Positions 13,991-62,660 are shown, counted from the first letter of the stretch. The stretch is DNA of 64,000 nt from Parcubacteria group bacterium GW2011_GWA2_40_23 (GCA_000996245.1 LBYP01000002.1:5352-69351); one strand, 5' to 3'. Notes: a model not told the origin generated them from the letters alone. Numbers and translations are program-made.

Positions 13991-14020
13991 GCGCGGCAAG
14001 TTCGAAAGAGAGGAACGGAC

Positions 14021-14248
14021 ATGCTGGTTCTGTTGACTCCTGCCAAGTTCACCGTCGTGACCTTGTTCGGTTTTGGGGTGTGGCATAAGGACGAGGTTCA
14101 ACGTCTGGCGAACAGGCTGAGAGCCTGCGTCTACACGTATCCAAGGAGGCTTTCGGTCGCGATCATCGCGGGAGAGCACTCCAAGGCTTCGATCGTGGAC
14201 GTCCTCGGTACGGACGACTTCGGCGTCGAGCTGAAGGTCAAGTGCTAG
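14021..14248 (+). CDS. Small GC-rich protein, paralogue 2 (75 aa)
   Basis: AGAGAGGAA SD. About 45% identical to paralogue 1 over the shared core. Confidence 0.5.
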   Translation: MLVLLTPAKFTVVTLFGFGVWHKDEVQRLANRLRACVYTYPRRLSVAIIAGEHSKASIVDVLGTDDFGVELKVKC

Positions 14249-14269
14249 AAACCAGTCACTCAAGGTTTC

Positions 14270-14341
14270 AAGAGGCGAGCAGCTTCGTAGTTGCTCGCCT
14301 TTTAAATTTTAGGAAATGAGACAACTCGTCTCTTTTTGTTT
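14270..14341 (+). terminator. Composite terminator: GAGGCGAGC...GCTCGCC+TTTT, then GAGAC-loop-GTCTC+TTTTTGTTT
   Basis: Two hairpins with U tracts. The outer 11 and 17 nt duplicate the 13501-13532 terminator. Confidence 0.5.
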
Positions 14342-18740: not shown

Positions 18741-19364
18741 CTAGAAGTTCCAGACCAGGCGCAGGTACAGCACGTGGTCACCCGCGATCTCCGGCGTGAA
18801 GTCGTAGGCGACCCAGATTCGGCCCGCGCCGAGCAAGATCGAGGGGCCGATGGCCGCCTCGTCGAACGTCTTCTCGGAGAAGAAGTTCTCCTGGACGATG
18901 CCGAACCCAGCGATGTTGCCTGGCTTCATCCAGTCGAGGGTGGTCAGCGTGTAGTAGTTCCGCTGCACGTGCCCCTTGTCGCCGTCGACAGGGAAGTAGA
19001 CGTCGCCCTCGACGCACAGGAGCAGGTCGCTTGGCAAGGGCTGCGTGAGCCAGATGCTCGCGAGAGCGGACATGCCGCCGTCGTTGGTCATCCAGAGACC
19101 TCCCAGGAGCTTGAGGTTCGTCTTCGTCGACAGGACGCTCATCTCCGGCCCGAAGTAGCCGAAGATCATGGAGTTGCCGCGCATTGACACCAGGCCGGTG
19201 GCGTGGGCGTAGATGCCGCCCGTGATGTTCTCGCTGAGCGTGAACGGGGAGAAGGTTCGGCCCAGGGTGACCAGGAACTGGCCGTTGGACTCGACCTTGG
19301 CCTCGGCGGCCGTGGGGATGATCATCGCACACAGCAACAGGATCACGAGCAGGAAGCGCTTCAT
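18741..19364 (-). CDS. GC-rich small outer-membrane beta-barrel-like protein (208 aa)
   Basis: Signal peptide MKRFLLVILLLCAMIIPTAAEA. C-terminus ...YLRLVWNF (alternating hydrophobics ending in Phe). GGAGG SD. TTGACT promoter-like sequence upstream. Confidence 0.5.
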   Translation of the reverse strand: MKRFLLVILLLCAMIIPTAAEAKVESNGQFLVTLGRTFSPFTLSENITGGIYAHATGLVSMRGNSMIFGYFGPEMSVLSTKTNLKLLGGLWMTNDGGMSALASIWLTQPLPSDLLLCVEGDVYFPVDGDKGHVQRNYYTLTTLDWMKPGNIAGFGIVQENFFSEKTFDEAAIGPSILLGAGRIWVAYDFTPEIAGDHVLYLRLVWNF

Positions 19365-19438
19365 CGAAGCCTCCAAAGTGGTGTGACGTCCCGTGAAACA
19401 GGACATTCTAATTTATCATAAATAATAAAAAAGTCAAG

Positions 19439-19797: not shown

Positions 19798-20115
19798 ATG
19801 GATGCACGACAAAAGGTCGTGGCAGTGTTCGATCTTCCGCACGGTGAAGGTCAGGTCGATCTGATGGTCGACATGGCACTTGAGTCCAGCTGGACTGGCC
19901 AAGGAATCGATACTTCGTACTTCATGTTCCACAAGCCGCACTGCGGCGGTCCCATGCGGCCGATCAAGGTGGCGGACAAGAAGATGGTTCTGTACTGCAG
20001 CGGTTGCGTGTTGCGTCTTCAGCTTCTGATCATGAAACTGCCTACGAACCTGGGCGAACTCGGTGAAGCGATCAACGAGACCTGCACGCATTCGGATCTG
20101 CCCTCACGTTTCTAA
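19798..20115 (+). CDS. GC-rich Zn-ribbon-like small protein (105 aa), unknown function
   Basis: AAGGAGGT SD. HKPHCGG...YCSGC Cys/His cluster. Strong terminator follows. Confidence 0.5.
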   Translation: MDARQKVVAVFDLPHGEGQVDLMVDMALESSWTGQGIDTSYFMFHKPHCGGPMRPIKVADKKMVLYCSGCVLRLQLLIMKLPTNLGELGEAINETCTHSDLPSRF

Positions 20116-33697: not shown

Positions 33698-34678
33698 ATG
33701 CGACGTATGTATAATTCAGATAAGCCTATAATTAAACATATCCCCGACTTCCTCGACTACCTCGAGATTGAAAAAGGTCTGGGAAATAAAACGCAAGAAA
33801 ACTACGCGCGTTTTTTACATCGTTTCTCGGAATGGTTGCAGCAGAACAATCAAGAGAAGCTTCTCCCCCACGAATTAAGCCCGGAGCTCGTTTGGGCTTA
33901 TCGTGTATATTTGTCGCGCGAAACAAAATCTAGAAGAAAGAACGAGGACTTTTTGAAAAAATCAACCCAGAATTATTATTTGATTGCCTTGCGCGGATTA
34001 TTGAATTTTTTCACAGAAAGAGATATTAATGCGATTCCTGGTGAAAAAGTTAAACTGGCTAAAAACTTAAAGGAACATAGCATTCATTTTTTAAATCTTG
34101 ATCAAATTAAACAATTATTAGAAGCTCCTGATATTAAACATACTCCTGGTTTAAGAGATCGAGCCATTCTCGAAAGCCTCTTTTCAACTGGATTACGCGT
34201 AGCTGAGCTGGCTAAATTAAATCGAGAAGATTTTAAAGTAAAAGATGGTGTTGTTTTTTTAGAACTTAATGTCATGGGTAAAGGAAGTCATCCTCGAGTA
34301 GTTTATTTTTCCGAGCGAGCTTTAAACTGGATAAAAGCATATTTAGCAAAGCGTGCAGATATTGACCCTGCCCTCTTTATTAATTATAAGCCAGGAAAAA
34401 ATGAAGTTAATGATCGGCGTTTAACGGTTCGTTCGATTGAAGTAATTGTAAAAAAATATGTAAAAATAGCCGGACTACCACTAACAACAACTCCACATAC
34501 GTTGCGACATTCATATGCCACGGACTTGTTGACACAGGGTGTCGATTTGAGGCTTGTTCAGGAGTTTTTGGGTCATCGAAGTATTTCGACGACTCAAATA
34601 TATACTCACGTGACTAACAAGAATCTGCGTGATGTTTACTTGAAATATCATAGTGGCGCACAAGATAAAAAATATTAA
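33698..34678 (+). CDS. Tyrosine recombinase XerC/XerD family
   Basis: C-terminal R..HxxR..Y catalytic motifs (LRHSYATDLL, GHRSISTTQIYTHV). Confidence 0.8.
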   Translation: MRRMYNSDKPIIKHIPDFLDYLEIEKGLGNKTQENYARFLHRFSEWLQQNNQEKLLPHELSPELVWAYRVYLSRETKSRRKNEDFLKKSTQNYYLIALRGLLNFFTERDINAIPGEKVKLAKNLKEHSIHFLNLDQIKQLLEAPDIKHTPGLRDRAILESLFSTGLRVAELAKLNREDFKVKDGVVFLELNVMGKGSHPRVVYFSERALNWIKAYLAKRADIDPALFINYKPGKNEVNDRRLTVRSIEVIVKKYVKIAGLPLTTTPHTLRHSYATDLLTQGVDLRLVQEFLGHRSISTTQIYTHVTNKNLRDVYLKYHSGAQDKKY

Positions 34679-35069: not shown

Positions 35070-35315
35070 ATGTCAAAACTAGTTGATTTTTTGAAGTTTC
35101 CGTGGCTAATTAGAAGCATACGTGAAATAAAAATTTTGTATTTAATTGTTTTTGTGATGTTGGCGGTACAAACAATTTTGTCCGCTCTTTTATTTATGCG
35201 TCTCGAGAAGCTTGATAATAGCTTTATCGATTACCGCGAAACATCCATGAAACGAATTAACCAGATTTACGGTCAGGTCTATTCCCTATCGTCGAGAATT
35301 GAAAATAAAAAATAA
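35070..35315 (+). CDS. Small single-TM protein
   Basis: 81 aa; its stop overlaps the next start (ATAATG). Confidence 0.35.
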   Translation: MSKLVDFLKFPWLIRSIREIKILYLIVFVMLAVQTILSALLFMRLEKLDNSFIDYRETSMKRINQIYGQVYSLSSRIENKK

Positions 35316-38300
35316 TGTATTTATATAATATAAAAATAAAATTTAGTATGACAAAAACAATTTTCATGAATCGTGCTTTTGTCAGTATTATCGCCGTGGT
35401 TACTGTTTTTACCATGAGCGGTATTGCTGGCTTAATACAACCGGCTAACGCAGCTAATCCCCCGCTTGATCCACCGTTAACAACGGCACTAGTTTATTCT
35501 AATCTTGTTGAACCAACAAATTTGACTGTTGGCGTGGATGGAAGTGTTTTGATTGCTGATTTTGACCTTCAAGGAAATGATCAACCATTAAGTAGTTTTA
35601 TGGTTTATGTTGAACCTGTAGGAGATTTTGACCCAGCAACTGATTTGGGTGCAGAAGGTTTGGCAAGTTTCACTCTTGGAATTGTTGAATCACCACAGGG
35701 GCCAGATGACGTTTTATTAAGTTTTATTGGAAACACTCCCATGGTTGGTTCGGGATTCTTTACTGGTATGTATGCTTATCAACTAACTCCAACCGGTTCA
35801 GATCCTTTAATTTCCAGTACCCTTACCACGTACTACCTAAACGCCGTGTATACGGATACGGCCGTTGTTGGGCATTCATTTGTGGTAAAAATCACTTCCC
35901 TTTCTGTTGCTTCTGGTGAATCTGCTGCAGTTTTTACGAACGTAGTTGGAGGTGATCCTGCATTACTAACAACAGAAACAATGACTTTTGTTGAAGGCGA
36001 AGAACCACCACCGGGTGGGGATGGTTTTTCCTTGGTCGCCTACGGTCCGATGCAACAAATGACTATTCCTAAATACGCTCCTGTAGATTTTTTCTTCAAT
36101 GAAGATTTAAATAGCGCTGTGAGAGCAGATTTAGATAGTTATTTTCAAACAGACCCGGTAGTTGCTGGCAATTGGAATCTCTATGATGAATATTGGGGCG
36201 AAAATCATATTTATCATGTTGGGTTTTTTCCGGCTGATGGTTGGGAGACAGGTACGTCTTACAATGTTAAAGCAGCAAAAAGCATTACAAACACTGAGGA
36301 TGAAGCATTTTCATTGGATTTGGGTGGCGGTGATGGTTTTGAATATGGTGACATGGCTTCTGACGAACTTTTTTATTATTTTACTGTTGTCGGTAGTGAT
36401 CAAGAAGACAGTGGTTACTTCCCTCCCATGGCTTTCTTGGGTTATCCTAATAATGAAATGCATAATGTACCAACAAGTTTACAACAGATAGGTGTTGAAT
36501 TTGATCGTAATGATATGGATGCTACAACGTTTACTAACGAAAATATTTATTTAGTCAAAGTTTCACCTGGCGGTGGCGAAGAGACGGTTGATGATGTAGA
36601 ACTATCCCCTGCAAGCGGCTTATCTGGCTCTGTAAGTTTGTCTGGATTTACATTAGAGGCAAATACTAAATATAGGGTTTATGTAACTCGCGATGTCATG
36701 GATAGCCGCGGGAATCGACTAGCTGGACAATTTAGTCAAGGTAGTGAACCCGGTCCCTTTACGAGCAGTTTTTATACTGGTGGAGGTTCAGATCAGCTTA
36801 TAGCTAGGTACATGGGCACAAATTTGAATTTTTTTAGAAATGGTGCCGGACAAATTGTTAACGTCCCCACGGCTGAAAATGTTCGACTATCATTTGACAA
36901 TCCTTTAATGGCCTCATCATTAACGGGCAATATTACAATTGAACCAAGCTTGGGCTGCGGTGAAGGTGGAGATTTATCTTTGTCGTATGATGCCAACTCT
37001 TTTGAAGCAATTGTAATCCCAAACTGTCTTTTTACCGCTTCAACTTCTTATACCTTAAGCTTTGAAGATTTAATGTCGGTTACGGGAACGGAGGTTAACG
37101 CTGGTAGTCTTGTTTTCACGACAGGACTAGCAGATGCCGCACAACCAACAATAAATTCTGTTATGGCCGACAATTATGGTTTGATAATTGAATTTAACGA
37201 GCCAATGGACACTACTCTTGCAGAAAACAAAGGAAACTATGCCTTAAAAGTGCGGAATGATGCTACAGACTGGGCAGAAGTTACAGCCACTCCACTTTCA
37301 AATGCTGTTGTCAGATATGAAAGTGATAATAAAACCGTGTTCATAGATATCTCATTGACTGCTGGGTCTGAATATCAAGTAACTGTCAGCAGCAATTTAA
37401 CAGATTTATCTGACAATCCCCTTTTGACTGATGGCGGTGTTAATGTTCGTACCGGTTATGTTATGGACGCGTCAAAATTTGCGGGCGGTCAAGGAAACCA
37501 AGGCATGGGTGGTAGTACTTTCGACATGGGAAACATGGGAGAAATGCCAATTGCTGTACGACCTATGTCAAAATTAGTTGGAGTTACAACAAAATATTTT
37601 GTTGATTTACCGATAAGTCAACAAATTAATGCTGGTGGCAAAATTGAATTTTGGTTCCCACAGGGATTTATAACGAGTGCTGCGATTCGTGATGCGCAAA
37701 GTCCAGTAAATGGTGACTTTAATCAACCAGCACCAGGTAAACCAAGTTTTGCGAATACAGATCCTGCCGGCACAACCAGTAATGGTGTTGCCAATGATGG
37801 TATTGGCATAATCGGCGAGCGAACTATTGTAATTAAGTTGAGCGAGGGTACTATGCCACAGGATTTTTTGCGTATCGACCTTGATGGCATTGTCAATTCT
37901 TCTACTGTGAAAAAAGAAGATACGGCAGGTTGGCAGGTCAGCATAATGACATATAATTCTTCAGGTGTAATGTTAGAAGGGCTTACATCAATGCCATTTT
38001 ATACGAGTGCTGGTGGTACAAATTCATTGACGGTTGACATTGATGGCGTTAGTGACGGTGACGATGGTTCTTTGGGAGTTTACCTATTCTCCCCCATGAC
38101 CGGTCAAATTATGCAAACAGCGACAATTACGGGCGATGAGTCAGAAGGGGTGGCCGATGGTAGTGTCACTTTCAATAATTTAGATGATGGACAATATGAG
38201 TTCTTCACAGATAAAAATGCACAACTAGATGGCAATATGTACTATGGGAATTCATTTATGGATAGTATTTCGCTGTCAGGCGGTGAGGATGAAACAAGAG

Positions 38301-41300
38301 AAATTATCTTTTCTGATCCTGCAACGCAAGACAATTTATACGCATTAGAAGTTACATTAATTGGAGATTTTACAACCGATGGCGAAAATGACAATGTTGA
38401 TATTTTTGCTGGTTCACCAAATGGATTTCGGGTTATCACGGCTTCACCGGGCAATACTGCTGGTTATCCTGTGACTCTATATTTACCTGATGGTGAATGG
38501 AATGTCGGTATGGGGCCGGCCATGTCTGCAACATCAACGATGGCTTCTCAAATAGATTGGATGCCACCACAAAATCAATTTGTTAAGGTTTGGAATAATG
38601 GATGGAATGCGAGCGTGCAAGAAGTAATATTGGATAGCAGTAATATAGAACAGTATTCAATCAGCGGATCAGTTGTTGATGAAAATGATGTTGGAATTGC
38701 TGATGTTGAAGTTTATGCCTATCAACCGCAAGCAAGTTTCGGAAAACAAAGTGTTAAAACGCAGTCAGATGGTTCTTTTGTCTTGAACGTAGGCTGGCCG
38801 GGTGTTTATACTCTTGGTACAAATAAAAATGGTTTTCCGGAGTCTTCACAGCAATCGATTGCGGTTAATGATGATGTCTCTGATGTTAGTTTTGTGTTGA
38901 AAAAACCAGCTTTTACAATTTCTGGCATGGTAAAAGATTATAATGGTAATGGCGTCCCTAACGCTCCTGTTTGGTCCTATCAAACAGCGGGTGGATTTGG
39001 CTGGTCTGGGACATCAACAGACGTAACAGGTTCATTTATTCTTTATGTTGATACGGGTACTTGGATGGTTGAATCAGACCCAAAAAGTGTCGGGTGGATG
39101 CAATACTCTGATGCAATTGAAATAACAGATGAATCTGTCAGTGGCATTACACTCCAACCAGATACTGATCTTGATTATGTAACCATAACAGGAAATGTAA
39201 GCATAGATGGTAATGCATATACGTACGGACCTATTCGGGCTGTAAAATACAATGCCAATGGGTCATTCGCTGGTCAGCAATATGGTGGTCAAACTGATAG
39301 TCAAGGAGATTATTCAATAACAGTACCAGAAGGAATTTATCGTGTAGATATTTGGGCTCCTGGTTATGGAGAGATTGAACGAACAGACTCTGATGATTAT
39401 CCAAATAACCCTGCAAACGTAAATGCAACCAGTGGCAATGTTGACGGAGTTGATATTACTGTCGGTGCGGATGACTTAATTGATGTCAGCGTTAATTTTA
39501 CAAATCTCGATAGCGGCGAATATGACGGTGTGTCAGCTTTTGTAACACTTAGTGCTGTTAACTTGGGGACAGGAATCCCTACCGGATACAAAAACAATAT
39601 CATGATCAAAAACATTGCTGACCCAACTTTTGATAATATTGTTAAGGTCAAGGAAGGAAATTATTTTGCCTTTGTTCAAGTGCCAGGGTATGGTGAATTT
39701 ATTCCGTTAGAGGGCCAACTAAATGCGGCCACAACACCAGGATACATTGATGTAGGCGCTGGAAGTACCGATAGTAATACACTCACTATTGATCTTCCGG
39801 ATGTAGATAATTTAATTACAGTCACTGGCTCTGTAATTGATGCAGAAGAAAGTCCAGTAGAAAATGCTTGGGTGACAATCAATAACATGGAAAAAGGTTT
39901 TAATCGCGGAGTTAATACTGATAGTAGCGGTGAATTTTCGATTAATTTACCGGTTCTTCAATCAGGAAATTATAATATTGCTGTTGGTAAACCAGGTTAT
40001 ATGGCTGTGACGCCAGAAGCTGTTGATTTAACTGATGTAAATCTAAATGGTATTGCTGATGCATTATATGAATTTACACTTCAACAGCAAACAGCACTTA
40101 TTACAGGTAATATATTTGCTGATAAAGATGGAGGCACAAATAATGTTCTTGATGTGGGAGAAGGTCTCGCTTATGGTTGGATCTTTGCTCAAGAAACAAT
40201 TACAGGTCTAGTAAGTAATACACCTGTTGATGGCAAAGGATATTATCAACTTGGAGTTGTTAATGGTACCTGGGAAGTTTTTGGTAATGCGGATGGATAT
40301 GAACAAACACAGTATAAATCGGGCGGAGTACCTGCAACGATTGTTGTCAACAATGGAAACCAAACCAACAAAAATATTGAACTTGGTTTGCGTGCAGATT
40401 GGAACAAAAAAACCAAAAAGAGCCCCATGACTTTGAATCAAGGTGGTACTATTGATGATTCAGCTTCAACCGGAACTGGTGTTAAATTGGTTGTTCCAGC
40501 GAATGCCATGGGGACATCAAGTTCTTCTGGGTCATTCAATATATCGAACACAACATCAGTTGGTTCATCTAATACGTCTAGACCCTTTGGTATGGAAGGA
40601 AAAGTTGTTAGTGCTGTTGATGCAGATGGTCAACCAATCACGACATTAAGCGATTACATTGACATTGAAATGGTTGTTTGGAAATCAGAAGTTGATGCTG
40701 AAATTGCAGCTGAAAGAATGACTGAAATGTCTGATCTTTTATCCGCTCAACTTGGGTATTATGACAATTCAACAGATAATTGGGTCGCATTAGAAACAAC
40801 GCGTGTCGCCTACTATCAAGAAAATGAAGATGATGCAGAATGGAAAACTTACATTAGCGATGATGAAACATTAAATGATTATGAAGCTTTTATTACGGAT
40901 GCTTTGATTGACGAAACCTTCACTGCTTATTTCGACTATAAGCTTGTTTTCACAGCCAAAACAAACCACTTAACGACTTTTGGGGTAACAACCGCGCTCG
41001 GTGTTGCCGGTGGCGAGGAATCAGCTAATGATGCACCAAGAAGCACTAGCGGCGCCGGTTCAGCTGTTATTCTTGTAACTGAAACAATTGTAGACAAAGC
41101 TATTACAGTTCCCCTTTCAACTTCATCATCAACAGTAGTTTTATCAAAGGCAGGGACTATGAATTTTACAAGCTCCGGTTTAGCTCATAGTTTAACGCTC
41201 AAAAATGTTGATGTGACTGGTCAGTCAGCAATTTTAGTAGTAGCGAGTACCCCCTTCGAAGTAACGGCTAAATTGAACAAGGCGGAATTAGTAGACATAA

Positions 41301-42001
41301 ATAAAGATGGTGTTAATGACATGGAAGTCTTGTTAACAGCGATAAATTCAGCAAATGATGTGAAATTAACAGTGAAGTTATTAGTTGGGGCGAGTATAGT
41401 CCCTCCAGGAGCCGTTGTGACACCAACTCCTGTAGCTGAAACACCCGCAACCACAGCTGTTACCACAGAGTATATGCCTCGTAAAGCTGCTGTGATTAAT
41501 CTTATGAGTGAACAGCAGGCCTTAACTGACTTCATTGCTTTGACAAAACTCGTACCAAACACGCAAGCCGACAACTGGGTAGTAGATTACCTTGCTTATG
41601 GTAATTCAACTCGTACCTTGGCAATGTCAGCTCGAGAAAGAAAGGGCATCTTGGAAGATTTTATCTCAATTTATGGCAACTTACCTAAGACTGAAAGTGA
41701 TTGGAAGGCTCTAGCTGAAATAGCGGCCGGTAAAGTCACTCCTAAGCGTGTTATTGCTCAGGAAGTTAAAGCGATCAAGGAATTCTTTAAAATCTTTAAG
41801 AAGACTGTTAATTTTAAAGATAAAACCAACGAATCCTTTGTTCACAAATTGTCTTATAGAATGCGAGTTGATCAGCGGAATTTAGCTAAGGAGCAAACAG
41901 CTTTAACTAAATTTATAAAAGTGTATCAAAAGAAGCCTTGGGATGGATATGCTTGGTCGATTGTGAGAGCACTCGCCTATTCTGGGATATTAGACAAATA
42001 A
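35315..42001 (+). CDS. Giant secreted/surface protein (2228 aa) with tandem Ig-like and carboxypeptidase-regulatory-like beta-sandwich repeats
   Basis: Signal peptide (...GIAGLIQPANA). At least five repeats of the pattern hydrophobic-T/S-I-S/T-G-x-V-x-D...G-V-Y-T-L. Confidence 0.7.
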   Translation: MYLYNIKIKFSMTKTIFMNRAFVSIIAVVTVFTMSGIAGLIQPANAANPPLDPPLTTALVYSNLVEPTNLTVGVDGSVLIADFDLQGNDQPLSSFMVYVEPVGDFDPATDLGAEGLASFTLGIVESPQGPDDVLLSFIGNTPMVGSGFFTGMYAYQLTPTGSDPLISSTLTTYYLNAVYTDTAVVGHSFVVKITSLSVASGESAAVFTNVVGGDPALLTTETMTFVEGEEPPPGGDGFSLVAYGPMQQMTIPKYAPVDFFFNEDLNSAVRADLDSYFQTDPVVAGNWNLYDEYWGENHIYHVGFFPADGWETGTSYNVKAAKSITNTEDEAFSLDLGGGDGFEYGDMASDELFYYFTVVGSDQEDSGYFPPMAFLGYPNNEMHNVPTSLQQIGVEFDRNDMDATTFTNENIYLVKVSPGGGEETVDDVELSPASGLSGSVSLSGFTLEANTKYRVYVTRDVMDSRGNRLAGQFSQGSEPGPFTSSFYTGGGSDQLIARYMGTNLNFFRNGAGQIVNVPTAENVRLSFDNPLMASSLTGNITIEPSLGCGEGGDLSLSYDANSFEAIVIPNCLFTASTSYTLSFEDLMSVTGTEVNAGSLVFTTGLADAAQPTINSVMADNYGLIIEFNEPMDTTLAENKGNYALKVRNDATDWAEVTATPLSNAVVRYESDNKTVFIDISLTAGSEYQVTVSSNLTDLSDNPLLTDGGVNVRTGYVMDASKFAGGQGNQGMGGSTFDMGNMGEMPIAVRPMSKLVGVTTKYFVDLPISQQINAGGKIEFWFPQGFITSAAIRDAQSPVNGDFNQPAPGKPSFANTDPAGTTSNGVANDGIGIIGERTIVIKLSEGTMPQDFLRIDLDGIVNSSTVKKEDTAGWQVSIMTYNSSGVMLEGLTSMPFYTSAGGTNSLTVDIDGVSDGDDGSLGVYLFSPMTGQIMQTATITGDESEGVADGSVTFNNLDDGQYEFFTDKNAQLDGNMYYGNSFMDSISLSGGEDETREIIFSDPATQDNLYALEVTLIGDFTTDGENDNVDIFAGSPNGFRVITASPGNTAGYPVTLYLPDGEWNVGMGPAMSATSTMASQIDWMPPQNQFVKVWNNGWNASVQEVILDSSNIEQYSISGSVVDENDVGIADVEVYAYQPQASFGKQSVKTQSDGSFVLNVGWPGVYTLGTNKNGFPESSQQSIAVNDDVSDVSFVLKKPAFTISGMVKDYNGNGVPNAPVWSYQTAGGFGWSGTSTDVTGSFILYVDTGTWMVESDPKSVGWMQYSDAIEITDESVSGITLQPDTDLDYVTITGNVSIDGNAYTYGPIRAVKYNANGSFAGQQYGGQTDSQGDYSITVPEGIYRVDIWAPGYGEIERTDSDDYPNNPANVNATSGNVDGVDITVGADDLIDVSVNFTNLDSGEYDGVSAFVTLSAVNLGTGIPTGYKNNIMIKNIADPTFDNIVKVKEGNYFAFVQVPGYGEFIPLEGQLNAATTPGYIDVGAGSTDSNTLTIDLPDVDNLITVTGSVIDAEESPVENAWVTINNMEKGFNRGVNTDSSGEFSINLPVLQSGNYNIAVGKPGYMAVTPEAVDLTDVNLNGIADALYEFTLQQQTALITGNIFADKDGGTNNVLDVGEGLAYGWIFAQETITGLVSNTPVDGKGYYQLGVVNGTWEVFGNADGYEQTQYKSGGVPATIVVNNGNQTNKNIELGLRADWNKKTKKSPMTLNQGGTIDDSASTGTGVKLVVPANAMGTSSSSGSFNISNTTSVGSSNTSRPFGMEGKVVSAVDADGQPITTLSDYIDIEMVVWKSEVDAEIAAERMTEMSDLLSAQLGYYDNSTDNWVALETTRVAYYQENEDDAEWKTYISDDETLNDYEAFITDALIDETFTAYFDYKLVFTAKTNHLTTFGVTTALGVAGGEESANDAPRSTSGAGSAVILVTETIVDKAITVPLSTSSSTVVLSKAGTMNFTSSGLAHSLTLKNVDVTGQSAILVVASTPFEVTAKLNKAELVDINKDGVNDMEVLLTAINSANDVKLTVKLLVGASIVPPGAVVTPTPVAETPATTAVTTEYMPRKAAVINLMSEQQALTDFIALTKLVPNTQADNWVVDYLAYGNSTRTLAMSARERKGILEDFISIYGNLPKTESDWKALAEIAAGKVTPKRVIAQEVKAIKEFFKIFKKTVNFKDKTNESFVHKLSYRMRVDQRNLAKEQTALTKFIKVYQKKPWDGYAWSIVRALAYSGILDK

Positions 42002-43420: not shown

Positions 43421-44956
43421 TTAAGATAAGAAGTCGAGGGCTTTTTGAATCCGAGCTAATGTTTTATCTTTCCCTAGCGCAGAAGCTAGTTCAAACGGTC
43501 CTGGTGATTTGTCTCGACCAGAAAGAGCATAGCGCAAAGGCCACAGAATTGAACCAGTATCAAGGTTGTTTTGTTGAATCAAGGCCTTGAGATCAACCTC
43601 TATTTTTTCTGAGTTGAATGATTCGTCTTTTAAATCTTGAAAATATTGTAAGAGAAGTTTTAAATTCACTTTTGTTTGTTCTTTGTCGGATTTCTTCCAG
43701 ATCAAATTCTCTGCAGGATATCCAAGATTGTTACTAAGCATAAAGCCAATCGCCTCTGGTAAGTCACTTAACTTTTTAATGCGACTCTTTTCGAGGGCTA
43801 AAATGCGGTTCAATTCAGTTGGTTTAATGCTCTCCCCTGTTTCGTTAATAACAATTTTATTGTCAGAAAAAGTCAAAAGTTCAGCTTTTTCTAAATATGG
43901 TTTGGCCAGTTCTAGGAATTTTGCTTCTGAAGATTCGCGAATATAAATGCCATTAATCCAATCTAATTTATCGACGTCGAAAACAGCACCTGCTTTATGA
44001 ACATTATCAAGTGAAAATTGATTAATAAGTTCATCGAAAGTATAAACTTCTTGTTCTGTGCCGGCGTTCCAGCCGAGTAAGGCAATAAAGTTCAAAAGAG
44101 CTTCTTTTAAATAACCAGATTCAACAAAATCAGAAACACTTGAATCTCCGTCGCGTTTGCTAAGCTTTTTGCGTTGTTTGTTTAATAATTGTGGTAAATG
44201 TGCGAATTGGGGCATTTGCCAACCAAAAGCTTCATACAATAAAACATGTTTGGGTGTGCTGGCAATCCATTCGTCTCCACGCATAACTTGAGTTATTTTC
44301 ATCAAATGATCATCAACAATATTGGCAAAGTGATAAGTTGGGAAATTATCTGCTTTCATTAAAACATAGTCATCGAGGTTCTTGGTATTAAAAATAATTT
44401 CGCCACGAATTAAATCATCACAAATTACATCTTTATTTTCGGGCATGCGGAAACGAATAACATGCGGTGCCCCCTGTTTTAAAAGCGTTTGAACTTCATC
44501 TTTAGATAAATCTCGACATAAATTATCGTATTTGGGTGCCAGTTTATTTTTAACCTGATCTTCGCGTAAAGTTTCCAGTCTTTCTTTACTGCAAAAACAA
44601 TAATAGGCTTTATTTTTGTCTAATAAATCTTGTATATGTTGTTGATAGATGTCTAGTCGCTGTGATTGCGTATAAGGTCCAAAATCACCTTTTTCCTTGA
44701 CCTTGCCATCTTTTGTGAGGTATGGACCTTCATCACCCGAAATATTAGCCCATTCAAGGACTTTAAGTAAATTTTCTACTGCTCCTGGCACTTTTCTTGT
44801 TTGGTCTGTGTCTTCGATTCTAATTAAAAAATTACCTTTATAATGTTTAGCAAAAAGAAAGTTATAAAGAATGGTTCTTAGGTTGCCAATATGAACAAGT
44901 CCTGTTGGGCTTGGAGCAATACGAACGCGTACATTTTGAGTATTAAGTTTTTCCAT
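43421..44956 (-). CDS. gltX: Glutamyl-tRNA synthetase
   Basis: RVRIAPSPTGLVHIGNLRT (HIGH-class motif) and a KLSKR-type KMSKS region. Confidence 0.9.
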   Translation of the reverse strand: MEKLNTQNVRVRIAPSPTGLVHIGNLRTILYNFLFAKHYKGNFLIRIEDTDQTRKVPGAVENLLKVLEWANISGDEGPYLTKDGKVKEKGDFGPYTQSQRLDIYQQHIQDLLDKNKAYYCFCSKERLETLREDQVKNKLAPKYDNLCRDLSKDEVQTLLKQGAPHVIRFRMPENKDVICDDLIRGEIIFNTKNLDDYVLMKADNFPTYHFANIVDDHLMKITQVMRGDEWIASTPKHVLLYEAFGWQMPQFAHLPQLLNKQRKKLSKRDGDSSVSDFVESGYLKEALLNFIALLGWNAGTEQEVYTFDELINQFSLDNVHKAGAVFDVDKLDWINGIYIRESSEAKFLELAKPYLEKAELLTFSDNKIVINETGESIKPTELNRILALEKSRIKKLSDLPEAIGFMLSNNLGYPAENLIWKKSDKEQTKVNLKLLLQYFQDLKDESFNSEKIEVDLKALIQQNNLDTGSILWPLRYALSGRDKSPGPFELASALGKDKTLARIQKALDFLS

Positions 44957-45220
44957 AATTTATGTAAATTTCATCAACATTATAGTCTATTTTGAGCAAC
45001 AAGTAAATGACAGTCAAGGTCAACGAATATATTGGCTAAATTTATTTAAAATATTGACATATCGTTTGAAGGGGTTGACAAAATTGTAATTATTTGCTAT
45101 TATTACCTGTTATTCAAGTGTTTACCTTAGCTTTTTGAGGCTGAGTTAATTTCCGCCTTTTAAAGGTGTAGTGAACACCACAAGTGATCTGTTCCCCAAC
45201 CATCCGTGAGGAGGTGCCTG

Positions 45221-46735
45221 ATGCTGTACCAGAAACTGCTCGATGCGAAGATCGGAGTCGGTCCGGCCACCATCACCAAGCTCGACGAGGCGGGTCTCAA
45301 GACCGCCGAGGCCATCCTGGCCGCCGGGCTCGACGGGCTGCGCGCCATCAAGGTCTTCCCGCCGATCGCGGGCAAGATCCTCGAGGTCGCGCTCGCCAAC
45401 CCGACGCCCGCCACCGAGATCGAGGCCGCGTCGGCCCCGATCATCCTCCACCCCGACGACGCGGCCAAGGTGGCCGAGGTCGCCCCCACCACCACGAAAA
45501 ACGAGACCCCCGCGGTCCTGGTCAAGCGGCAGACGGTGTTCGCCGCCAAGCTCGAGGAGGCCGCCAAGGCCAACGGTACGACGGTGGAGGAGCTCCGCGC
45601 CGCCGCCAAGGCCAACGTGCCGGCCGAGAAGCCGGTCGTGGTGACCCACAAGACCCTGGCCAAGCCCGAGAACGAGCACGTGAACTTCATCGACGTCGGG
45701 ATCGAAACCCCGACCGAGTTCACGAGCCCCGTGCGTCTGCGCGACTTCTTCGACAAGCTGCCCAAGGGGCAGGTGCCGGACAGCGCGCGCTACATCAAGA
45801 ACCTCTTCCCCGTCTGCGCGATGTGTCGCGCCGCGGGCAGCACGAAGACCCTCCAGATCGACCACGTGCACGTGCTCGTGGTCACCCGTCTCGACGGCAG
45901 CGTCAACAGCGGTTTGTTCTGCGACGACCACATCACGGTGGCGTACGGACAGGCCAAGGACCTGGTCAAGGACGGGAAGCTGAAGGAGGTCAAGATCATC
46001 TGGCTGCGCGAGGCGTGGGCCAACCTGACCCGCGCGTACAGGGCGCAGGTCGACGAGGCGCGCGAAGAGCGCTACCGCAAGGAGCGCGCCGACCGCCGCA
46101 CGGCCGCCCTCCGGGCCGTGATGGAGGATCTCGGCTCGGTGACCAGCGAGCACTGGATGACCGACGAGCAGCTCGGCAGCTACGTGTCGCCCATGGACGT
46201 CCCGGTCTTCACGTGCGGACTCGAGGCGAAGCAGGCCCGTGAGCTGCACCTCCTGCCCAACGACAAGGAGAAGGGTACGTTCAAGGGGCGCTGGGGGCGG
46301 TTCTACGACGAGTACGGCATCCGGCTCGTCATGCGGCCCCCGCAGGACCTGACCCAGCACAACACGCTCGTCCAGCACTTGCGGGACGACGCCAAGGCCG
46401 CCCAGGCCACGCCGTTCTTCCCCGTCGTCCTGGTCCGCCGTTACTTCGGTGACGACCTGGGCTGGCGCTACCTGGCGATCCACGAACTGGTCATCGAGGA
46501 GTTCGTGGCGACCTACGAGCAGGCGCACAACTTCAAGGTGCGCACCGGGGCCATGGCCTACGAGTGGCTGACCCGTCGCTGGGAGGTCCAGCGCGAAGAA
46601 GCCGCCAAGGCCGCGGCGCAGGCGTTCGCCAAGAGCGACGAAGGCAAGGCGCTGAACGCCTTCCTCAACGCCGCCCCGGACGACGAGGCCGCCGCCGACA
46701 GCGCCCTGTTGGCCGGCAGCGCCCACAAGAAGTAA
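45221..46735 (+). CDS. GC-rich 504-aa protein with N-terminal tandem helix-hairpin-helix motifs and a central HNH-like nuclease motif
   Basis: GAGGAGGTG SD. HhH motif LLDAKIGVGPATITKL. HNH-like motif CAMC..LQIDHVHV..(12)..NSGLFCDDH. Confidence 0.5.
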   Translation: MLYQKLLDAKIGVGPATITKLDEAGLKTAEAILAAGLDGLRAIKVFPPIAGKILEVALANPTPATEIEAASAPIILHPDDAAKVAEVAPTTTKNETPAVLVKRQTVFAAKLEEAAKANGTTVEELRAAAKANVPAEKPVVVTHKTLAKPENEHVNFIDVGIETPTEFTSPVRLRDFFDKLPKGQVPDSARYIKNLFPVCAMCRAAGSTKTLQIDHVHVLVVTRLDGSVNSGLFCDDHITVAYGQAKDLVKDGKLKEVKIIWLREAWANLTRAYRAQVDEAREERYRKERADRRTAALRAVMEDLGSVTSEHWMTDEQLGSYVSPMDVPVFTCGLEAKQARELHLLPNDKEKGTFKGRWGRFYDEYGIRLVMRPPQDLTQHNTLVQHLRDDAKAAQATPFFPVVLVRRYFGDDLGWRYLAIHELVIEEFVATYEQAHNFKVRTGAMAYEWLTRRWEVQREEAAKAAAQAFAKSDEGKALNAFLNAAPDDEAAADSALLAGSAHKK

Positions 46736-46755
46736 CGTTCAACAACGTTCGTAGC

Positions 46756-46799
46756 CGCCTCCCGAGGACTCATTTCTCGGGGGGCGCTTTTTTTTGACA
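46756..46799 (+). terminator. Intrinsic terminator (11-bp stem CGCCTCCCGAG/CTCGGGGGGCG followed by a T9 tract)
   Basis: Read directly from the sequence. Confidence 0.65.
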
Positions 46800-46855
46800 A
46801 ATATACACCTGAACTCTATGATTGTACTAAGTGGTACTGTTCTAAGGAGCGTGGC

Positions 46856-47473
46856 ATGAATGCGAAACATCTTCCTCCGCCCACTCCCACGACGCTCTCC
46901 GAAGCGTTTTGGCCCCTGTTCATGACGAACAAAGTGATGGTGCGTTTTGTCGGTGCGTATATCTGCTTCGGCGTGGCAGATGACAGCAACCGACTACTCG
47001 TAGTGTATGCACACGACACTGCCAGCCGATTGCATCTTCCTACACAGGAAGCAATTGCTCGAGCGTTCCCTCTGCGGAATGCCAAACAACAAGAATACAC
47101 CGGACCACATGATCTGCCAGTGTCGTACAGTGACATTCAACGAGTTCGCAACGTGATGCGTTATGAGTTTCTTCAGGAAAACCGGCGCGTCTTACTGCTT
47201 GTTTCGACTCCTGAGGAGTCGGTAGTTGAAAACCAGGAACAACTCATGTTCATCCAATGGAGTAGACCGAACCCACTTCAAATTGCTCGCATCGTCGAAA
47301 CTATTGGTGCGGATCGTGTCCACGTCGTACGAAAAAATGCGCTGGAAACGCGCCTCCTGGTGGAGTTGAAACCCAATGAACGATTGAAGTTCTCTGTGAC
47401 CGGTTGCCACTTCAGCAGCCCCTTTGCAACTGCGGCTCTGTTGCCGGTGCAGTGCGACACCTGCACTGCTTGA
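46856..47473 (+). CDS. Moderately GC-rich 205-aa protein, unknown function
   Basis: AAGGAG SD. Natural composition. Terminator follows. Confidence 0.45.
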   Translation: MNAKHLPPPTPTTLSEAFWPLFMTNKVMVRFVGAYICFGVADDSNRLLVVYAHDTASRLHLPTQEAIARAFPLRNAKQQEYTGPHDLPVSYSDIQRVRNVMRYEFLQENRRVLLLVSTPEESVVENQEQLMFIQWSRPNPLQIARIVETIGADRVHVVRKNALETRLLVELKPNERLKFSVTGCHFSSPFATAALLPVQCDTCTA

Positions 47474-47478
47474 AAATA

Positions 47479-47519
47479 AGCCAGCCTTGATCCTCGAATC
47501 TTGGCTGGCTTTCTTTTTA
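47479..47519 (+). terminator. Intrinsic terminator (AGCCAGCC-loop-GGCTGGCT followed by TTCTTTTT)
   Basis: 8-bp stem plus a U tract. Confidence 0.65.
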
Positions 47520-47529
47520 CAAAATAAAT

Positions 47530-48735
47530 CTAAATTTCATCAATAAATTTTTTGGTAAATTCTTGTCGAACCGGATGTAATAGTTTTAATAGTTCATCTT
47601 TTTTGACCCACTTGATGGCAGCGACTTCCCTATTTGGTCGGAATTGATTTGAGTCGATAGCCCCGCTATATTCTACTAAAAATGCAATTTGCTTTTGTCC
47701 TTTGTACCCATGAAGTAATTGATAATGTTTTGGTGAGATATAGGCATGTTCTGCCTTAATTCTTTTAACTACTTTCATCTTATCTAATTCGAATCCGAGC
47801 TCTTCATTAATTTCACGCAGGATTGCAATCTCAATATTCTCGTTTTTATCAACGCCGCCTTGTGGAAATTGCCAGTGATTGGGAAGATGAGCATTTTCTT
47901 GAATTAAATATAGACCGTCTTTGTTTTTTATAACGCCGAGAACATTGGCACGATATTCTGTTTTAATTCTTTTAGCCCATTTATGACATTCTAAAAGAAA
48001 ATCTGCGGTGGCATGTTTAATGCGCATCAACCTTTTTGGTTCTTGATAAAGTCTAAAGAGCCATTCCATTCCCAGTTCTTGCATTAACTTTGGCGCGCGC
48101 TTTATCTTGCCTGATAAAAAATCAAAAGATCCCCCGACACCCAATGCTATTCTGACTGATGATCCATACCCCTTATCCCCTATCCCTTTTCCCAAATTGT
48201 TTTCAATCCACTCCTCTTGTTCTGGCGCACCCAAACAGACAAACAATACTTGAGTTTGATGCTTTTTGATTTTGTCCAAAAGAACTTTATCAGCGATTGG
48301 AGTTTTAGCGGATAAAGCACATCCAAGTTTAACTTGAGGATATGAATTATCGAAAAACTTTTTTAGGTCCTCAAGCGTTGTTAGCGAATCGTTTCGTAGA
48401 AGTACAAAAACACGAGCCGAGTTGTTTTGGCCTAATAGTTCGCGCGTGAAGTCAGCGCCTGTGACTCGGTTTTTTAAATCTGTTCCAAGTATTTTGGCAC
48501 CGAGTTTGAGCCCAAAGCCATCTGGCAAATTTAAGTCTGCCGAGTTCAATGTGTCTTTGTATTCTTCCGAGCTTGCAGCTTTTAAGCAGATTTCTGGGTT
48601 GGGCGTATAAACGCTATGGGGAGCATCCGAGGCCATGAACTCCCTGGTTTTTTCAAGAAAATATTCCAAAGGCTGGTCGTCTATTTTAACGCCAAGAATT
48701 ATCGCTTTGTTTTGTAGGTCTTTGGGGACGTTCAT
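47530..48735 (-). CDS. Fusion protein: WecG/TagA-family glycosyltransferase (N-terminal) plus NUDIX hydrolase (C-terminal)
   Basis: TagA-like C-terminal WLFRLYQEPKR motif, then Nudix box GGVDKNENIEIAILREINEELG. The ATG at 48735 is preferred over the TTG at 48816. Confidence 0.6.
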   Translation of the reverse strand: MNVPKDLQNKAIILGVKIDDQPLEYFLEKTREFMASDAPHSVYTPNPEICLKAASSEEYKDTLNSADLNLPDGFGLKLGAKILGTDLKNRVTGADFTRELLGQNNSARVFVLLRNDSLTTLEDLKKFFDNSYPQVKLGCALSAKTPIADKVLLDKIKKHQTQVLFVCLGAPEQEEWIENNLGKGIGDKGYGSSVRIALGVGGSFDFLSGKIKRAPKLMQELGMEWLFRLYQEPKRLMRIKHATADFLLECHKWAKRIKTEYRANVLGVIKNKDGLYLIQENAHLPNHWQFPQGGVDKNENIEIAILREINEELGFELDKMKVVKRIKAEHAYISPKHYQLLHGYKGQKQIAFLVEYSGAIDSNQFRPNREVAAIKWVKKDELLKLLHPVRQEFTKKFIDEI

Positions 48736-48809
48736 AATGTTTTGATACTTGTGGGTAAACAAGAACAATATAGCAGATTTTTGCTTAAATTTAAATAACA
48801 CCACTAGAT

Positions 48810-48837
48810 TTGACAAATTATGGCTATCCCCTATAAT
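48810..48837 (+). promoter_or_regulatory. clpB promoter-like sequence (TTGACA-N16/17-TATAAT)
   Basis: -35 at 48810-48815; -10 at 48832-48837. Confidence 0.45.
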
Positions 48838-61219: not shown

Positions 61220-62160
61220 TTAATTTAAAAATAATTTTGTATCAAGGGCAAAAATGCGATCGGAAAAATCTGCCGGAGAGCCTTGATTATCGAAGATAGC
61301 TTTATCAGCGACGTTAACCTTAGTAGATAGATCATCCAAATGATTTAGCGCAACTGCTTCGCGTGTTTGTGGTAAAACAGGGCTACCAAACTCTAAACGG
61401 CCATGATGACTGGCAATTAAATGTAGCACTTTTGTTTTTAATAAATCAGGAAAATCTTTTATACTCTCGATAGCTTTAGACACAGCAATTGTGCCTAACA
61501 TTAAATGACCAATGAGCGCCCCATCAACAGTACGAAAAATTGTATGATTTACATCCAATTCATCGAGTTTGCCAATGTCATGTAATAAAACTCCAGTCTT
61601 TAAAAGATCTTTATCTATTCTTGTAAAACTGGCACATAAACATTCTGCTAATGCAAGCATCTCGGATACATGTTCTACAAAACCACCAACGTAAGCATGA
61701 TGTATACGTTCTGCTGCCGGAGCTTTCTTGAACTTTTCGATAAATTTTTCATCTTTAAAAAAAGAATTTACGAGTTTCTTTAAATCATCATTCTCGATAC
61801 TATCGACTTGTTTTAAAATTGTTTTGAAGAGCGCTTCTAAATCCTTCTCTGATCCGGGTAGAAAATCGGCTGTTTCTTGATTTTGAGCTTTTTGTAAAAA
61901 TGAAATTATAAGTTGATTTTTTTCTTTAAATTCATTGACCTTGCCTCCAAGACTAATGATGTCACCAATCTCAAACTCATCACAATTGTTCAAATTATCT
62001 TCCCAAATTTTAGCTGTTATTTCACCGGTTCGATCAGCTAAAATAAGGTCAATAAAATCTTTATTTTGGCTGGTTTTCCCTTTTTTAATGTCTCGTACTA
62101 CTGCTAAAAAATTGGCGACTTGGTCTCCGGCTTGTAAATCCTTGATGAATTTATCTTTCA
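61220..62160 (-). CDS. YhaM-like 3'-5' exoribonuclease (OB fold plus HD domain)
   Basis: MKDKFIKDLQAGDQV... OB fold, then HHAYVGGFVEHV...LLHDIGK HD motifs. The ATG at 62160 is preferred; the longer ORF runs into the GC-rich island. Confidence 0.6.
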
Positions 62161-62274
62161 TATTTGATTGTTTTTTATGATTTGTGACCTCTTCTATAAA
62201 TGAAAGTTGAGTCATAATGCTGTGATTTATACTAAAATAGCGTAAGAGTATAAAATTATTATAGCATTTTTTGA

Positions 62275-62311
62275 GAAATATAAAAGGCGCACTGATCTTG
62301 AGACCAGGCGC
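62275..62311 (-). terminator. Intrinsic terminator, minus strand, of the receiver-domain gene
   Basis: GGCGC-loop-GCGCC with TTTTATATTT on the minus strand. Confidence 0.5.
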
Positions 62312-62318
62312 CAACGTT

Positions 62319-62660
62319 CTACGCAGCTGCAACGATTTTCTTGATTTTTCGACGCAGTTCAATCGCATCGAAAGGCTTGGTGACCACTTCGTCGGGTTGC
62401 TCGGCACAAGAGAAGTGTTCTGGCGGGGCGCTTGAAACCATGATGATGCGAGCATCAGGGCAAAGTCGTCGTGCGTAGACGATGAACTCGGCTCCCGTCA
62501 TTCCAGGCATGTCGTGGTCTGTGACAATGACCCGGGCTGAGCGACCGCTAAGGCATTTTAAGGCCTCGAATGGTGAATGATGCGTTCGGTGTGGCAAAGT
62601 ACCAGCAACAGCCTTGAATAGAGCTAGATTCTCTGGCAGATCATCAACGAAAAGCACCAT
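62319..62660 (-). CDS. GC-rich stand-alone CheY-like receiver (REC) domain protein (113 aa)
   Basis: AGGGAG SD. LFVDD, phospho-acceptor region VIVTDHDMPGMTG, and the conserved TKPF lysine. Confidence 0.6.
   Translation of the reverse strand: MVLFVDDLPENLALFKAVAGTLPHRTHHSPFEALKCLSGRSARVIVTDHDMPGMTGAEFIVYARRLCPDARIIMVSSAPPEHFSCAEQPDEVVTKPFDAIELRRKIKKIVAAA

Follow-up and report, generated by a model that had tools for sequence, protein, structure and literature searches.

Horizontally acquired GC islands are marked by a sharp step in base composition and by orphan genes, and according to amelioration theory, a resident gene drifts to the base composition of its host genome. The locus described here is a pair of adjacent open reading frames, ORF1 and ORF2, in a 64,000-nt stretch of DNA (in the following the window) from Parcubacteria group bacterium GW2011_GWA2_40_23 (GCA_000996245.1; LBYP01000002.1:5352-69351), which belongs to the candidate phyla radiation (CPR). 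It resembles acquired islands in its sharp GC step, in consisting of orphan genes and in the 30-nt imperfect direct repeat that flanks it in this genome. In contrast to them, the pair is inherited vertically in a fixed slot, lacks mobility genes, is embedded in native AT-rich regulatory DNA and has remained unameliorated despite saturated synonymous sites, at two distinct stable GC levels. In CPR genomes, it is unsafe to infer recent transfer, and hence a defence or mobile element, from a GC island. What holds synonymous sites against mutation pressure is a long-open question which is usually confounded by horizontal transfer; here, descent is vertical, and the locus affords a clean natural test between RNA structure, codon-set orthogonality and biased conversion. 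It is more interesting for this composition than for the nuclease proposed in an initial annotation, and the reading as a nuclease or defence module should be dropped.

Further described systems for comparison are mRNA-stabilising leaders and rare-codon control. 5'-terminal stem-loops stabilise mRNA in the Escherichia coli ompA leader as well as in the Bacillus subtilis aprE and ermC leaders. The ORF1 leader is alike in carrying a long hairpin near the predicted transcription start, without a U-tract and upstream of a strong Shine-Dalgarno (SD) sequence, and this hairpin is conserved as structure, not as sequence. Unlike in those leaders, the start is a predicted one only, and a role as a protein-binding operator or as a riboswitch component is just as conceivable for the hairpin, which has no Rfam match. 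In Streptomyces, TTA codons together with the bldA tRNA gate translation. ORF1 is similar in that its codons are systematically mismatched to genome usage, while it differs in that almost every codon is affected, that the mismatch runs the opposite way, with G/C-ending codons used in an AT-rich genome, and that no dedicated tRNA has been identified.

Composition of the gene pair

The window has ~38% GC and belongs to an AT-rich genome of ~36% GC. Its GC profile runs at 0.28-0.40 in the backbone, rises to 0.58-0.76 at 45200-46750, falls to ~0.47 in the 100-nt spacer between the genes, reaches 0.47-0.57 at 46850-47450 and returns to 0.27-0.40 past 47470, which confirms the GC-rich two-gene block of the initial annotation. 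ORF1 (45221-46735, + strand) starts with ATG, encodes 504 aa and has 68% GC, or 0.67/0.42/0.95 by codon position, i.e., a third-position GC content (GC3) of 0.95. ORF2 (46856-47473, + strand; GenBank UT32_C0009G0049) encodes an orphan alpha/beta protein of 205 aa and has 52% GC with 0.61/0.41/0.54 by codon position and, thus, a GC3 of 0.54; UT32_C0009G0049 of Parcubacteria group bacterium GW2011_GWC2_39_14 is identical to it. Genes flanking the pair in the window have GC3 values of 0.28-0.35. The start of ORF1 at 45221 with its SD sequence GAGGAGGTG and the limits of ORF2 were given correctly from the outset. An assembly artefact was ruled out: the ORF1-ORF2 arrangement is identical in two independent Logan assemblies, and the junctions are genuine, recurring in independent Logan, ENA, JGI and NCBI assemblies and in eight diverged lineages.

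These lineages, compared in the following with the window copy (W), are L001, L003, L009, L010, L011/12, L013/14, L015-17 and L018/19; the last of them was profiled for GC in 150-nt windows only and stands outside the GC and GC3 values reported here. Across copies, ORF1 has 61-70% GC and ORF2 47-57%, with flanks of 30-38%. In lineages with readable host genes, GC3 amounts to 0.85-0.97 for ORF1 and 0.45-0.63 for ORF2 against 0.17-0.33 for the host; L011, with no flanking gene on its contig, has an ORF1 GC3 of 0.77. ORF1 third positions hold 3-15% A+T, about 5% in five of the seven copies.

At the same time, the sites have had ample opportunity to change. The synonymous divergence (dS) of the flanking genes is 0.9-1.7 between W and L001 and saturated towards L003 and L013. 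At four-fold degenerate sites, distant ORF1 copies agree with each other as random G/C draws would (e.g., 0.33-0.54 observed vs 0.37-0.45 expected). Between W and L001, 64 of 189 four-fold sites in ORF1 differ, 50 of them by G<->C, compared with only 14 G<->C changes among 356 differing sites (out of 736) in the flanks. ORF1 synonymous sites turn over, but only within {G,C}. Expressed as log-odds relative to host genes by the standard mutation-selection balance formula, the GC3 shift is 3.3-4.4 for ORF1 (seven lineages) and 0.8-1.4 for ORF2 (six), and is gene-specific and stable, GC3 tracking the host where the latter is more AT-rich, e.g., in L013. The GC-rich stretches coincide with the two coding sequences only; promoter, 110-nt leader and inter-gene spacer are AT-rich and conserved across lineages.

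Several simple causes were discarded. Translational selection for G/C-ending codons is contradicted by the ATP-synthase, ClpB and aminoacyl-tRNA-synthetase genes in the window with their GC3 of 0.25-0.32, local hypermutation by the four-fold sites of ORF1, whose divergence between W and L001 is comparable with the flanks, and a donor reservoir found no support in a HMMER search over 1.84e9 proteins. It is quite possible that ORF1, and less so its neighbour, is held at a gene-specific deviant composition by a force on the coding sequence with a scaled pressure of about 4, and that it belongs to a class of "compositionally insulated" CPR genes, with an orthogonal mRNA or codon set. If so, annotation would systematically miss this class, since gene callers trained on an AT-rich background mis-frame such genes. 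No published precedent for a vertical bacterial gene with GC3 ~0.95 in a genome with GC3 ~0.28 was found in the limited literature considered, which is no proof of absence.

Reading frame and public annotation

GenBank holds a different product at the position of ORF1, namely a 352-aa, Arg/Gly/Pro-rich protein (UT32_C0009G0048, KKR07587.1) from the +2 frame, one base off that of ORF1, at 45184-46242 (+ strand). On the opposite strand, a 526-aa ORF (45146-46726, - strand) occupies the exact reverse-complement codon register of ORF1; in this register, the first codon position is 93% G/C, so that stops cannot occur. High GC3 thus lets long shadow ORFs arise, and both candidates were rejected as genes, being shadows of a gene with GC3 0.95. 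By exact-sequence look-up, the 352-aa shadow product is found in NCBI, while the 504-aa product is known only from Logan gene calls. The 504-aa frame is backed by GC content per codon position, in-frame indels among orthologues, detection of a helix-hairpin-helix (HhH) domain and an AlphaFold2 (AF2) model with a predicted confidence (pLDDT) of ~90 over residues 155-500. Hence, 45221-46735 is the true reading frame of ORF1 and the GenBank frame is wrong.

The same error recurs in relatives. In L003 (GCA_964565345.1; 8560-9879), the called gene is also wrong-framed, with GC by position of 0.95/0.67/0.48; the correct frame encodes 511 aa and aligns with ORF1. In L001, the called ORF1 product carries a spurious 17-aa N-terminal extension. 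Due to such mis-framing by gene callers, protein databases show next to nothing of the ORF1 family, and other genes of this kind may be concealed elsewhere.

Distribution and descent

L001, represented by a 372-kb ENA contig, shares 67% identity with the window copy in ORF1 and 85% in ORF2, and L003, an NCBI metagenome-assembled genome, 40% and 53%, respectively. Wherever flanking genes can be read on the contig, the pair sits in one slot, with gltX on the reverse strand, ORF1 and ORF2 on the forward strand and a wecG-NUDIX fusion gene again on the reverse strand. Both flanks are readable in the window's own contigs, L001, L003 and L013/14, and one flank in L009, L010 and L015-17; in L018/19, ORF2 follows ORF1 and the contigs hold no flanking gene. 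The co-occurrence of the two genes in other genomes, raised as a check in the initial annotation, is thereby borne out, as they are always found together in copies read on contigs. Identity and distance matrices sort the lineages alike for gltX, wecG, ORF1 and ORF2, namely into (W, L001), (L003, L009, L015) and (L010, L013).

An exhaustive HMMER search returned eight ORF1 representatives among 1.84e9 proteins, all of which were read on contigs, and none of the eight lies in another gene context. No relative was obtained when 50,697 phage records and 72,556 plasmid records were searched by tblastn, or by IMG/VR scans with ORF1 and ORF2 alignments. A metagenome scan with ORF1 patterns gave nothing, and with ORF2 patterns two more copies, of the L001-like lineage only. 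Neither an integrase, a transposase nor a tRNA gene is found at the borders of the block, and the window as a whole holds no tRNA gene. The nearest integrase-family (XerC-like) ORF, which has an annotated counterpart in L003, lies ~10 kb upstream at 33698-34678. With one slot in eight lineages, congruent trees and no adjoining mobility genes, the locus does not behave as a mobile island or homing element, as judged from genomes that carry the pair. The pair is an ancient, vertically inherited orphan pair, confined to one Parcubacteria clade, and the designation as an island, in the sense of a recent acquisition, fails.

An imperfect 30-nt direct repeat brackets the pair at 44948-44977 and 47514-47543 (25/30 identical, better than in all 300 shuffles). 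Its left copy overlaps the first gltX codons and its right copy the last codons of wecG-NUDIX. In L001, the repeat is down to 13 nt, and L003 and L013 lack it; it is confined to the W/L001 lineage and was therefore rejected as an att site or target duplication.

Transcription signals and mRNA structure

Both genes have their own expression signals. The ORF1 promoter, TTGACA-N17-TATTAT with a TG-extended -10 element (11/12 consensus match), was correctly recognized as a motif in the initial annotation but misplaced: it lies at 45075-45103 (+ strand), 46 nt upstream of the ~45121-45149 given there. Across eight lineages, TTGACAAA...TTTGCTAT(A/T)AT is invariant. A few nucleotides past the predicted transcription start of the window copy begins the leader hairpin (45109-45189, + strand), with a minimum free energy of -23.9 kcal/mol and a z-score of -3.4. 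Single-sequence folds compared with shuffles revealed leader hairpins of 55-70 nt in seven of seven lineages tested (z -2.5 to -7.2), with stabilities matched by at most one of 200 shuffles and with differing stem sequences; the hairpin DNA is conserved above flanking synonymous sites. As no U-tract follows on its 3' side, the hairpin is not a terminator, and an Rfam scan of the GC-rich block including the leader returned no family. The SD sequence GAGGAGGTG at 45208-45216 (+ strand) retains GGAGG in orthologous leaders.

Downstream of ORF1, an intrinsic terminator (46756-46796, + strand) is formed by a 13-bp stem (46756-46786) with nine GC pairs followed by T8; a terminator stands at this 3' end in six lineages, again with differing stem sequences. 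The ORF2 promoter, TTGACA-N17-TATGAT (46794-46822, + strand; 11/12 consensus match), is conserved in position across lineages, and the SD sequence of ORF2 is AAGGAG. Between the convergent ORF2 and wecG-NUDIX genes, AAGCCAGCC...GGCTGGCTT followed by TCTTTTT (47478-47519) forms a hairpin spanning 47478-47511, which is probably the terminator for both. An SD sequence and a terminator for each gene can thus be read as first described, and with a terminator and a second promoter between them in six lineages, ORF1 and ORF2 are separate transcription units.

mRNA folding was evaluated against synonymous shuffles that preserve the protein, codon usage and dinucleotide counts. Here, ORF1 mRNA folds more stably than its shuffles in all seven lineages (z -1.5 to -4.0). 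For comparison, gltX and wecG gave z-scores of +0.45 and +1.96, and two other GC-rich genes of the window -1.7 and -2.0; a simpler shuffle yielded the same picture. The ORF1 start region is comparatively open, with -5 to -17 kcal/mol vs about -20 per 60 nt inside the gene, and its first 15 codons are A/T-ending in 17.5% of cases vs about 5% elsewhere. Reduced structure at start codons is a general trend (PMC2816680), and the match of ORF1 to it argues for native expression. Likewise, the combination of 5' hairpin, open start and structured body with the near-consensus promoters and strong terminators seen in each lineage fits a long-lived structured transcript.

Quite possibly, then, the pair comprises a non-enzymatic DNA-binding protein and a partner; the mRNA they are made from would be structured and stable, and selection would act on the coding RNA. 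The ORF1 product would be abundant and bind DNA through an N-terminal (HhH)2 domain, which is followed by a flexible linker, a two-helix element, a beta-rich domain (with a zinc knuckle in one sub-clade), a 43-residue helix and an alpha/beta domain. ORF2 would be its co-inherited and more constrained partner. A gene-specific force at synonymous sites would keep both coding sequences GC-rich against the AT-biased mutation of the host, and this force would most likely be selection for an mRNA that is long-lived and heavily base-paired. The anatomy of the locus, the (HhH)2 domain, the loss of the nuclease residues, the fixed synteny, the congruence of the trees, the maintained composition and the excess RNA structure are demonstrated; that ORF1 binds DNA and is abundant, that ORF1 and ORF2 are partners and that selection targets mRNA stability is what we infer here.

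A number of points weigh against this proposal. The (HhH)2 domain, the sole basis for DNA binding, is small and modelled with low confidence (pLDDT 43-58), and DNA binding, expression and partnership are all deduced for predicted proteins from their sequences. The excess stability of the RNA is only 3-8% of the folding energy, and modest excesses of this kind have been reported for many genes; ORF2 mRNA also shows it under the same shuffles, in three of five lineages. CPR bacteria are usually credited with a small effective population size, which is difficult to square with scaled selection of ~4 at hundreds of synonymous sites. Furthermore, mRNA stability leaves unexplained the shifted first-position GC content (GC1) and amino-acid composition as well as the two distinct, stable GC levels of ORF1 and ORF2. 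Finally, the statement that the proteins have no known fold refers to comparison with the PDB only.

Predicted proteins

The first domain of ORF1 is also the one with a recognizable relative. A family profile matches the N-terminal domain of RadA/Rad51 (1pzn, E 8.7e-4) at residues ~5-59 (45233-45397, + strand), and Pfam HHH_5 is matched by five of nine family members (best E 3.3e-5), the window copy alone staying below threshold with E 0.035. The tandem HhH motifs noted at the outset hence correspond to a real (HhH)2 domain. Like its RadA/Rad51 counterpart, it has the G-[IV]-G-P-x-T motif in place; unlike these recombinases, ORF1 lacks the RecA-type ATPase core, and its other 440 residues are unrelated to any recombinase. 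As judged from sequence profiles, (HhH)2 is the only family membership that appears to hold for the pair.

Residues 61-155 (45401-45685, + strand) form a low-complexity linker with a two-helix element around GTTVEEL (residues 106-131); its pLDDT is <50 save for helices 106-117 and 122-131, and it shares 20-36% identity with relatives. Most orthologues have a Lys/Ala/Pro-rich linker, while that of the window copy is not basic (pI 5.9). Residues 156-261 are beta-rich, and residues 262-304 build a single long charged helix of 43 residues. The C-terminal alpha/beta domain (residues 305-504; 46133-46732, + strand), carrying GWRYL..HE and WLTRRW, is among the best conserved parts, and no relative of it was found. 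Between the window copy and its nearest relatives, conservation is higher in the (HhH)2 domain, the long helix and the C-terminal domain and lowest in the linker.

No invariant polar residues that would mark an active site occur across the ORF1 or ORF2 family alignments, and searches of the PDB with the ORF1 model, which is confident (pLDDT ~90) over residues 155-500, matched no enzyme fold. Scans of both proteins against Pfam, PHROGs, PADLOC and NCBIfam gave nothing above threshold, member-by-member Pfam scans of both families gave HHH_5 only, and a profile-to-profile comparison found ORF1 and ORF2 unrelated. The cysteines at the C-terminus of ORF2, pointed out in the initial annotation, are not conserved in the family. 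ORF1 protein identity is 67%/42%/30% where gltX has 94%/89%/72%. Nominal dN/dS (ratio of nonsynonymous to synonymous divergence) is ~0.2 for ORF2, the more constrained of the two, and 0.6-1.1 for ORF1, a value which is unreliable because dS is compressed by the two-state (G/C) constraint. An (HhH)2 protein with a confidently modelled, unmatched body of 350 residues, together with a 205-aa partner, makes the pair candidates for CPR-specific DNA biology.

Putative nuclease motif and defence module

The initial annotation had proposed an HNH nuclease in ORF1, and the motifs it named are indeed present, with CAMC at 45815-45826, IDHVHV at 45857-45874 and NSGLFCDDH at 45905-45931. Together, CxxC (C199, C202) and CxxH (C234, H237) bracket a beta-hairpin (45815-45931, + strand) and are kept in one sub-clade: the four putative Zn ligands occur in the window copy, P0002, P0007, P0008 and P0009 and are absent in P0010-P0012. 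They form a probable structural Zn site, and as H237 is conserved only alongside the three Cys, it is better read as the fourth Zn ligand than as a catalytic residue. In this respect, the sub-clade shares with T4 endonuclease VII and HNH enzymes a CxxC...Cxx(H/C) zinc knuckle bracketing a beta-hairpin followed by a helix. In contrast to those enzymes, the ORF1 family has no conserved catalytic Asp/His or metal-binding Asn/His, and its Zn ligands are dispensable. The 67%-identical orthologue has IDGTFV in place of the IDHVHV of the window copy, and others have IDTAFV, IDQAFV, IDEAMV or IDDTMV. H215 is confined to the window copy, with G, T, Q, E, D, K or N taking its place in orthologues, and N229 is likewise unique to this copy, the position being variable elsewhere. 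In the model, D214-H215 precede the strand 216-223 instead of standing at a strand end. The DNA encoding IDHVHV contains a near-perfect palindrome, CGACCACGTGCACGTGCTCG (45859-45878), which also pairs with 45672-45693 (82% complementary).

Database evidence for a nuclease is weak. Pfam PF02945 (Endonuclease_7) is hit by one of nine members only, the window copy, at residues 198-223 with E 0.15 and 12.5 bits vs a cut-off of 23.6, and PHROG endonuclease VII matches the window copy with E 0.2-0.6. The family profile returned no nuclease from the PDB sequences. The His-Me finger that a structure search had been expected to detect was absent from both structure searches, although a 40-residue motif can escape whole-chain comparison, so that a remote descent from an endonuclease-VII-like scaffold is conceivable. 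With DH and Asn not conserved and CxxC...CxxH lost in three representatives, the HNH assignment is not supported; on the alignments, a conserved nuclease function appears excluded for the ORF1 family, and the beta-rich domain is at most a decayed endonuclease-VII-like scaffold.

Nor does the pair look like a defence, toxin-immunity or homing module. The best PADLOC-DB 2.0 matches (E 0.001 with 16.5 bits over 35 residues to PDC-M01B, and E 0.0099) are short fragments and noise, and a fixed slot, congruent phylogeny, separate transcription and the lack of mobile relatives speak against it as well. Type II toxin-antitoxin systems consist of two small co-transcribed genes, usually overlapping or closely abutting. 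Here, a terminator and an own promoter separate the genes, and ORF1 encodes 504 aa.

Alternative explanations

The chief rivals to selection for a structured mRNA are biased gene conversion and an orthogonal codon set. Conversion that keeps the pair GC-rich would agree with the very fast protein evolution of ORF1 (67% identity against 94% for gltX, nominal dN/dS 0.6-1.1), with GC1 and amino-acid composition shifted along with GC3, as expected of a coding-blind process, and with a G<->C turnover twice that of the flanks. However, a conversion tract would ignore gene limits, while the GC boundaries observed here are start and stop codons and the spacer is AT-rich. Additionally, a single hotspot would hardly yield two stable levels in adjacent genes, excess RNA structure is not predicted, and the ORF1 tree matches the flank trees, so that there is no sign of rampant exchange. 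Effects of biased conversion reported for bacteria amount to a few percent of GC3, far below a difference of 0.28 to 0.95, and we regard this explanation as unlikely. Alternatively, the G/C-ending codon set itself might be selected. ORF1 would then depend on codon-anticodon pairs seldom used by other proteins of the cell, and tRNA supply or modification would limit or switch its translation, or it would escape an attack on A/U-decoding tRNAs or AU-rich mRNAs, as an inverse of TTA/bldA control. A near-complementary third-position use (5% A+T in ORF1 vs about 70% in host genes) and the gene-specific, stable GC3 level fit this idea, and the strong promoter, SD sequence and leader suggest that output is set post-transcriptionally. 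Yet it explains neither the shift in GC1 and amino-acid composition nor the intermediate level of ORF2, and the window holds no tRNA gene to show dedicated tRNAs. By established decoding rules, the G34 tRNAs that read NNU codons also read NNC, so that only the NNG half could be orthogonal. We hold selection on the codon set to be rather improbable.

The remaining explanations carry still less weight. The GC-rich block might act as DNA, e.g., by staying free of an AT-preferring nucleoid protein, possibly ORF1 itself, and thereby escaping compaction or silencing. ORF1 does have predicted DNA-binding modules and, in most lineages, an H1-like basic linker, and the window is dotted with several other small GC-rich genes. 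Against this, the window copy has a linker that is not basic (pI 5.9), and silencing would act at promoters, which here are AT-rich; this purely conjectural role seems very unlikely. No more credit is due to an HhH-tethered HNH/His-Me nuclease with ORF2 as its immunity, antitoxin or specificity partner. The HNH-compatible spacing of CxxC, DH, N and H in the window copy, the endonuclease VII matches (Pfam E 0.15, PHROG E 0.2-0.6), the predicted beta-hairpin and helix at the motif and a pair that always co-occurs and evolves fast would all be in line with such a module. They are set against H215 and N229 not being conserved even at 67% identity, Cys/His ligands lost in P0010-P0012, a DH located before the strand, Endonuclease_7 in one of nine members, PADLOC noise, a fixed locus without mobility genes or phage, plasmid or viral relatives, and separate promoters and terminators; for the family as a whole, the nuclease-module reading is close to refuted. 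Foreign DNA, either from a recent high-GC donor or re-acquired repeatedly at the site from a high-GC reservoir, is the most improbable explanation of all. Composition and codon usage resemble those of a high-GC organism, the window holds other GC-rich orphan genes, one of them without any homologue, and the 30-nt repeat surpasses all 300 shuffles. Nevertheless, synonymous sites saturated within {G,C} next to saturated flanks imply a residence time that far exceeds the amelioration time. One slot in eight lineages, congruent trees and no family member outside the slot among 1.84e9 representatives also contradict an import, as do the conserved, host-like AT-rich promoters, leader and spacer, the differing compositions kept by ORF1 and ORF2, and borders devoid of integrase, transposase and tRNA genes with a repeat absent in L003 and L013.

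Other GC-rich segments and neighbouring genes

The statement that nothing in the backbone resembles the pair is wrong for composition, since at least six other window segments exceed 50% GC, among them two ORFs with GC3 0.91-0.92. These encode proteins of 326 aa (17397-18377, - strand; GC3 0.91) and 221 aa (18741-19406, - strand; GC3 0.92), with AT-rich DNA between them, and both have signal-peptide-like N-terminal segments and no Pfam match. The 326-aa protein finds no homologue but itself among 5.8e9 clusters and is therefore uninformative on the generality of the phenomenon. Segments 311-1290 and 13651-14330 are GC-rich as well (53% and 56%) and show no convincing ORF or codon periodicity, no tRNA and no Rfam match, whether at gathering threshold or at E<=1. 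They might represent structured RNAs of an unknown kind or mis-framed genes, and a 98-aa ORF within the latter (13694-13990) looks protein-like. Two small ORFs at 19798-20115 (+ strand) and 62319-62660 (- strand) have an intermediate GC content of ~53%, resembling the ORF2 class. The second of them is a stand-alone CheY-like receiver domain (PF00072, E 3e-9) and overlaps the 5' end of an ORF at 61220-62455.

Next to the pair, 47530-48816 (- strand) encodes a WecG/TagA-type glycosyltransferase fused to a NUDIX hydrolase, a fusion present in all relatives examined. Further upstream, a secreted giant protein of 2228 aa (35315-42001, + strand) lies between the XerC-like integrase and M23 peptidase genes; it has 2219 aa in L001 (Big_5 and CarboxypepD_reg matches) and no counterpart at this place in L003. 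The L003/L006 contig (CAZMEQ010000005.1; 30-38% GC) is collinear with the window in the order SerS, Alr, POTRA protein, integrase, M23 peptidase, gltX, the pair, wecG-NUDIX and clpB, and its label "uncultured Gammaproteobacteria bacterium" looks wrong.

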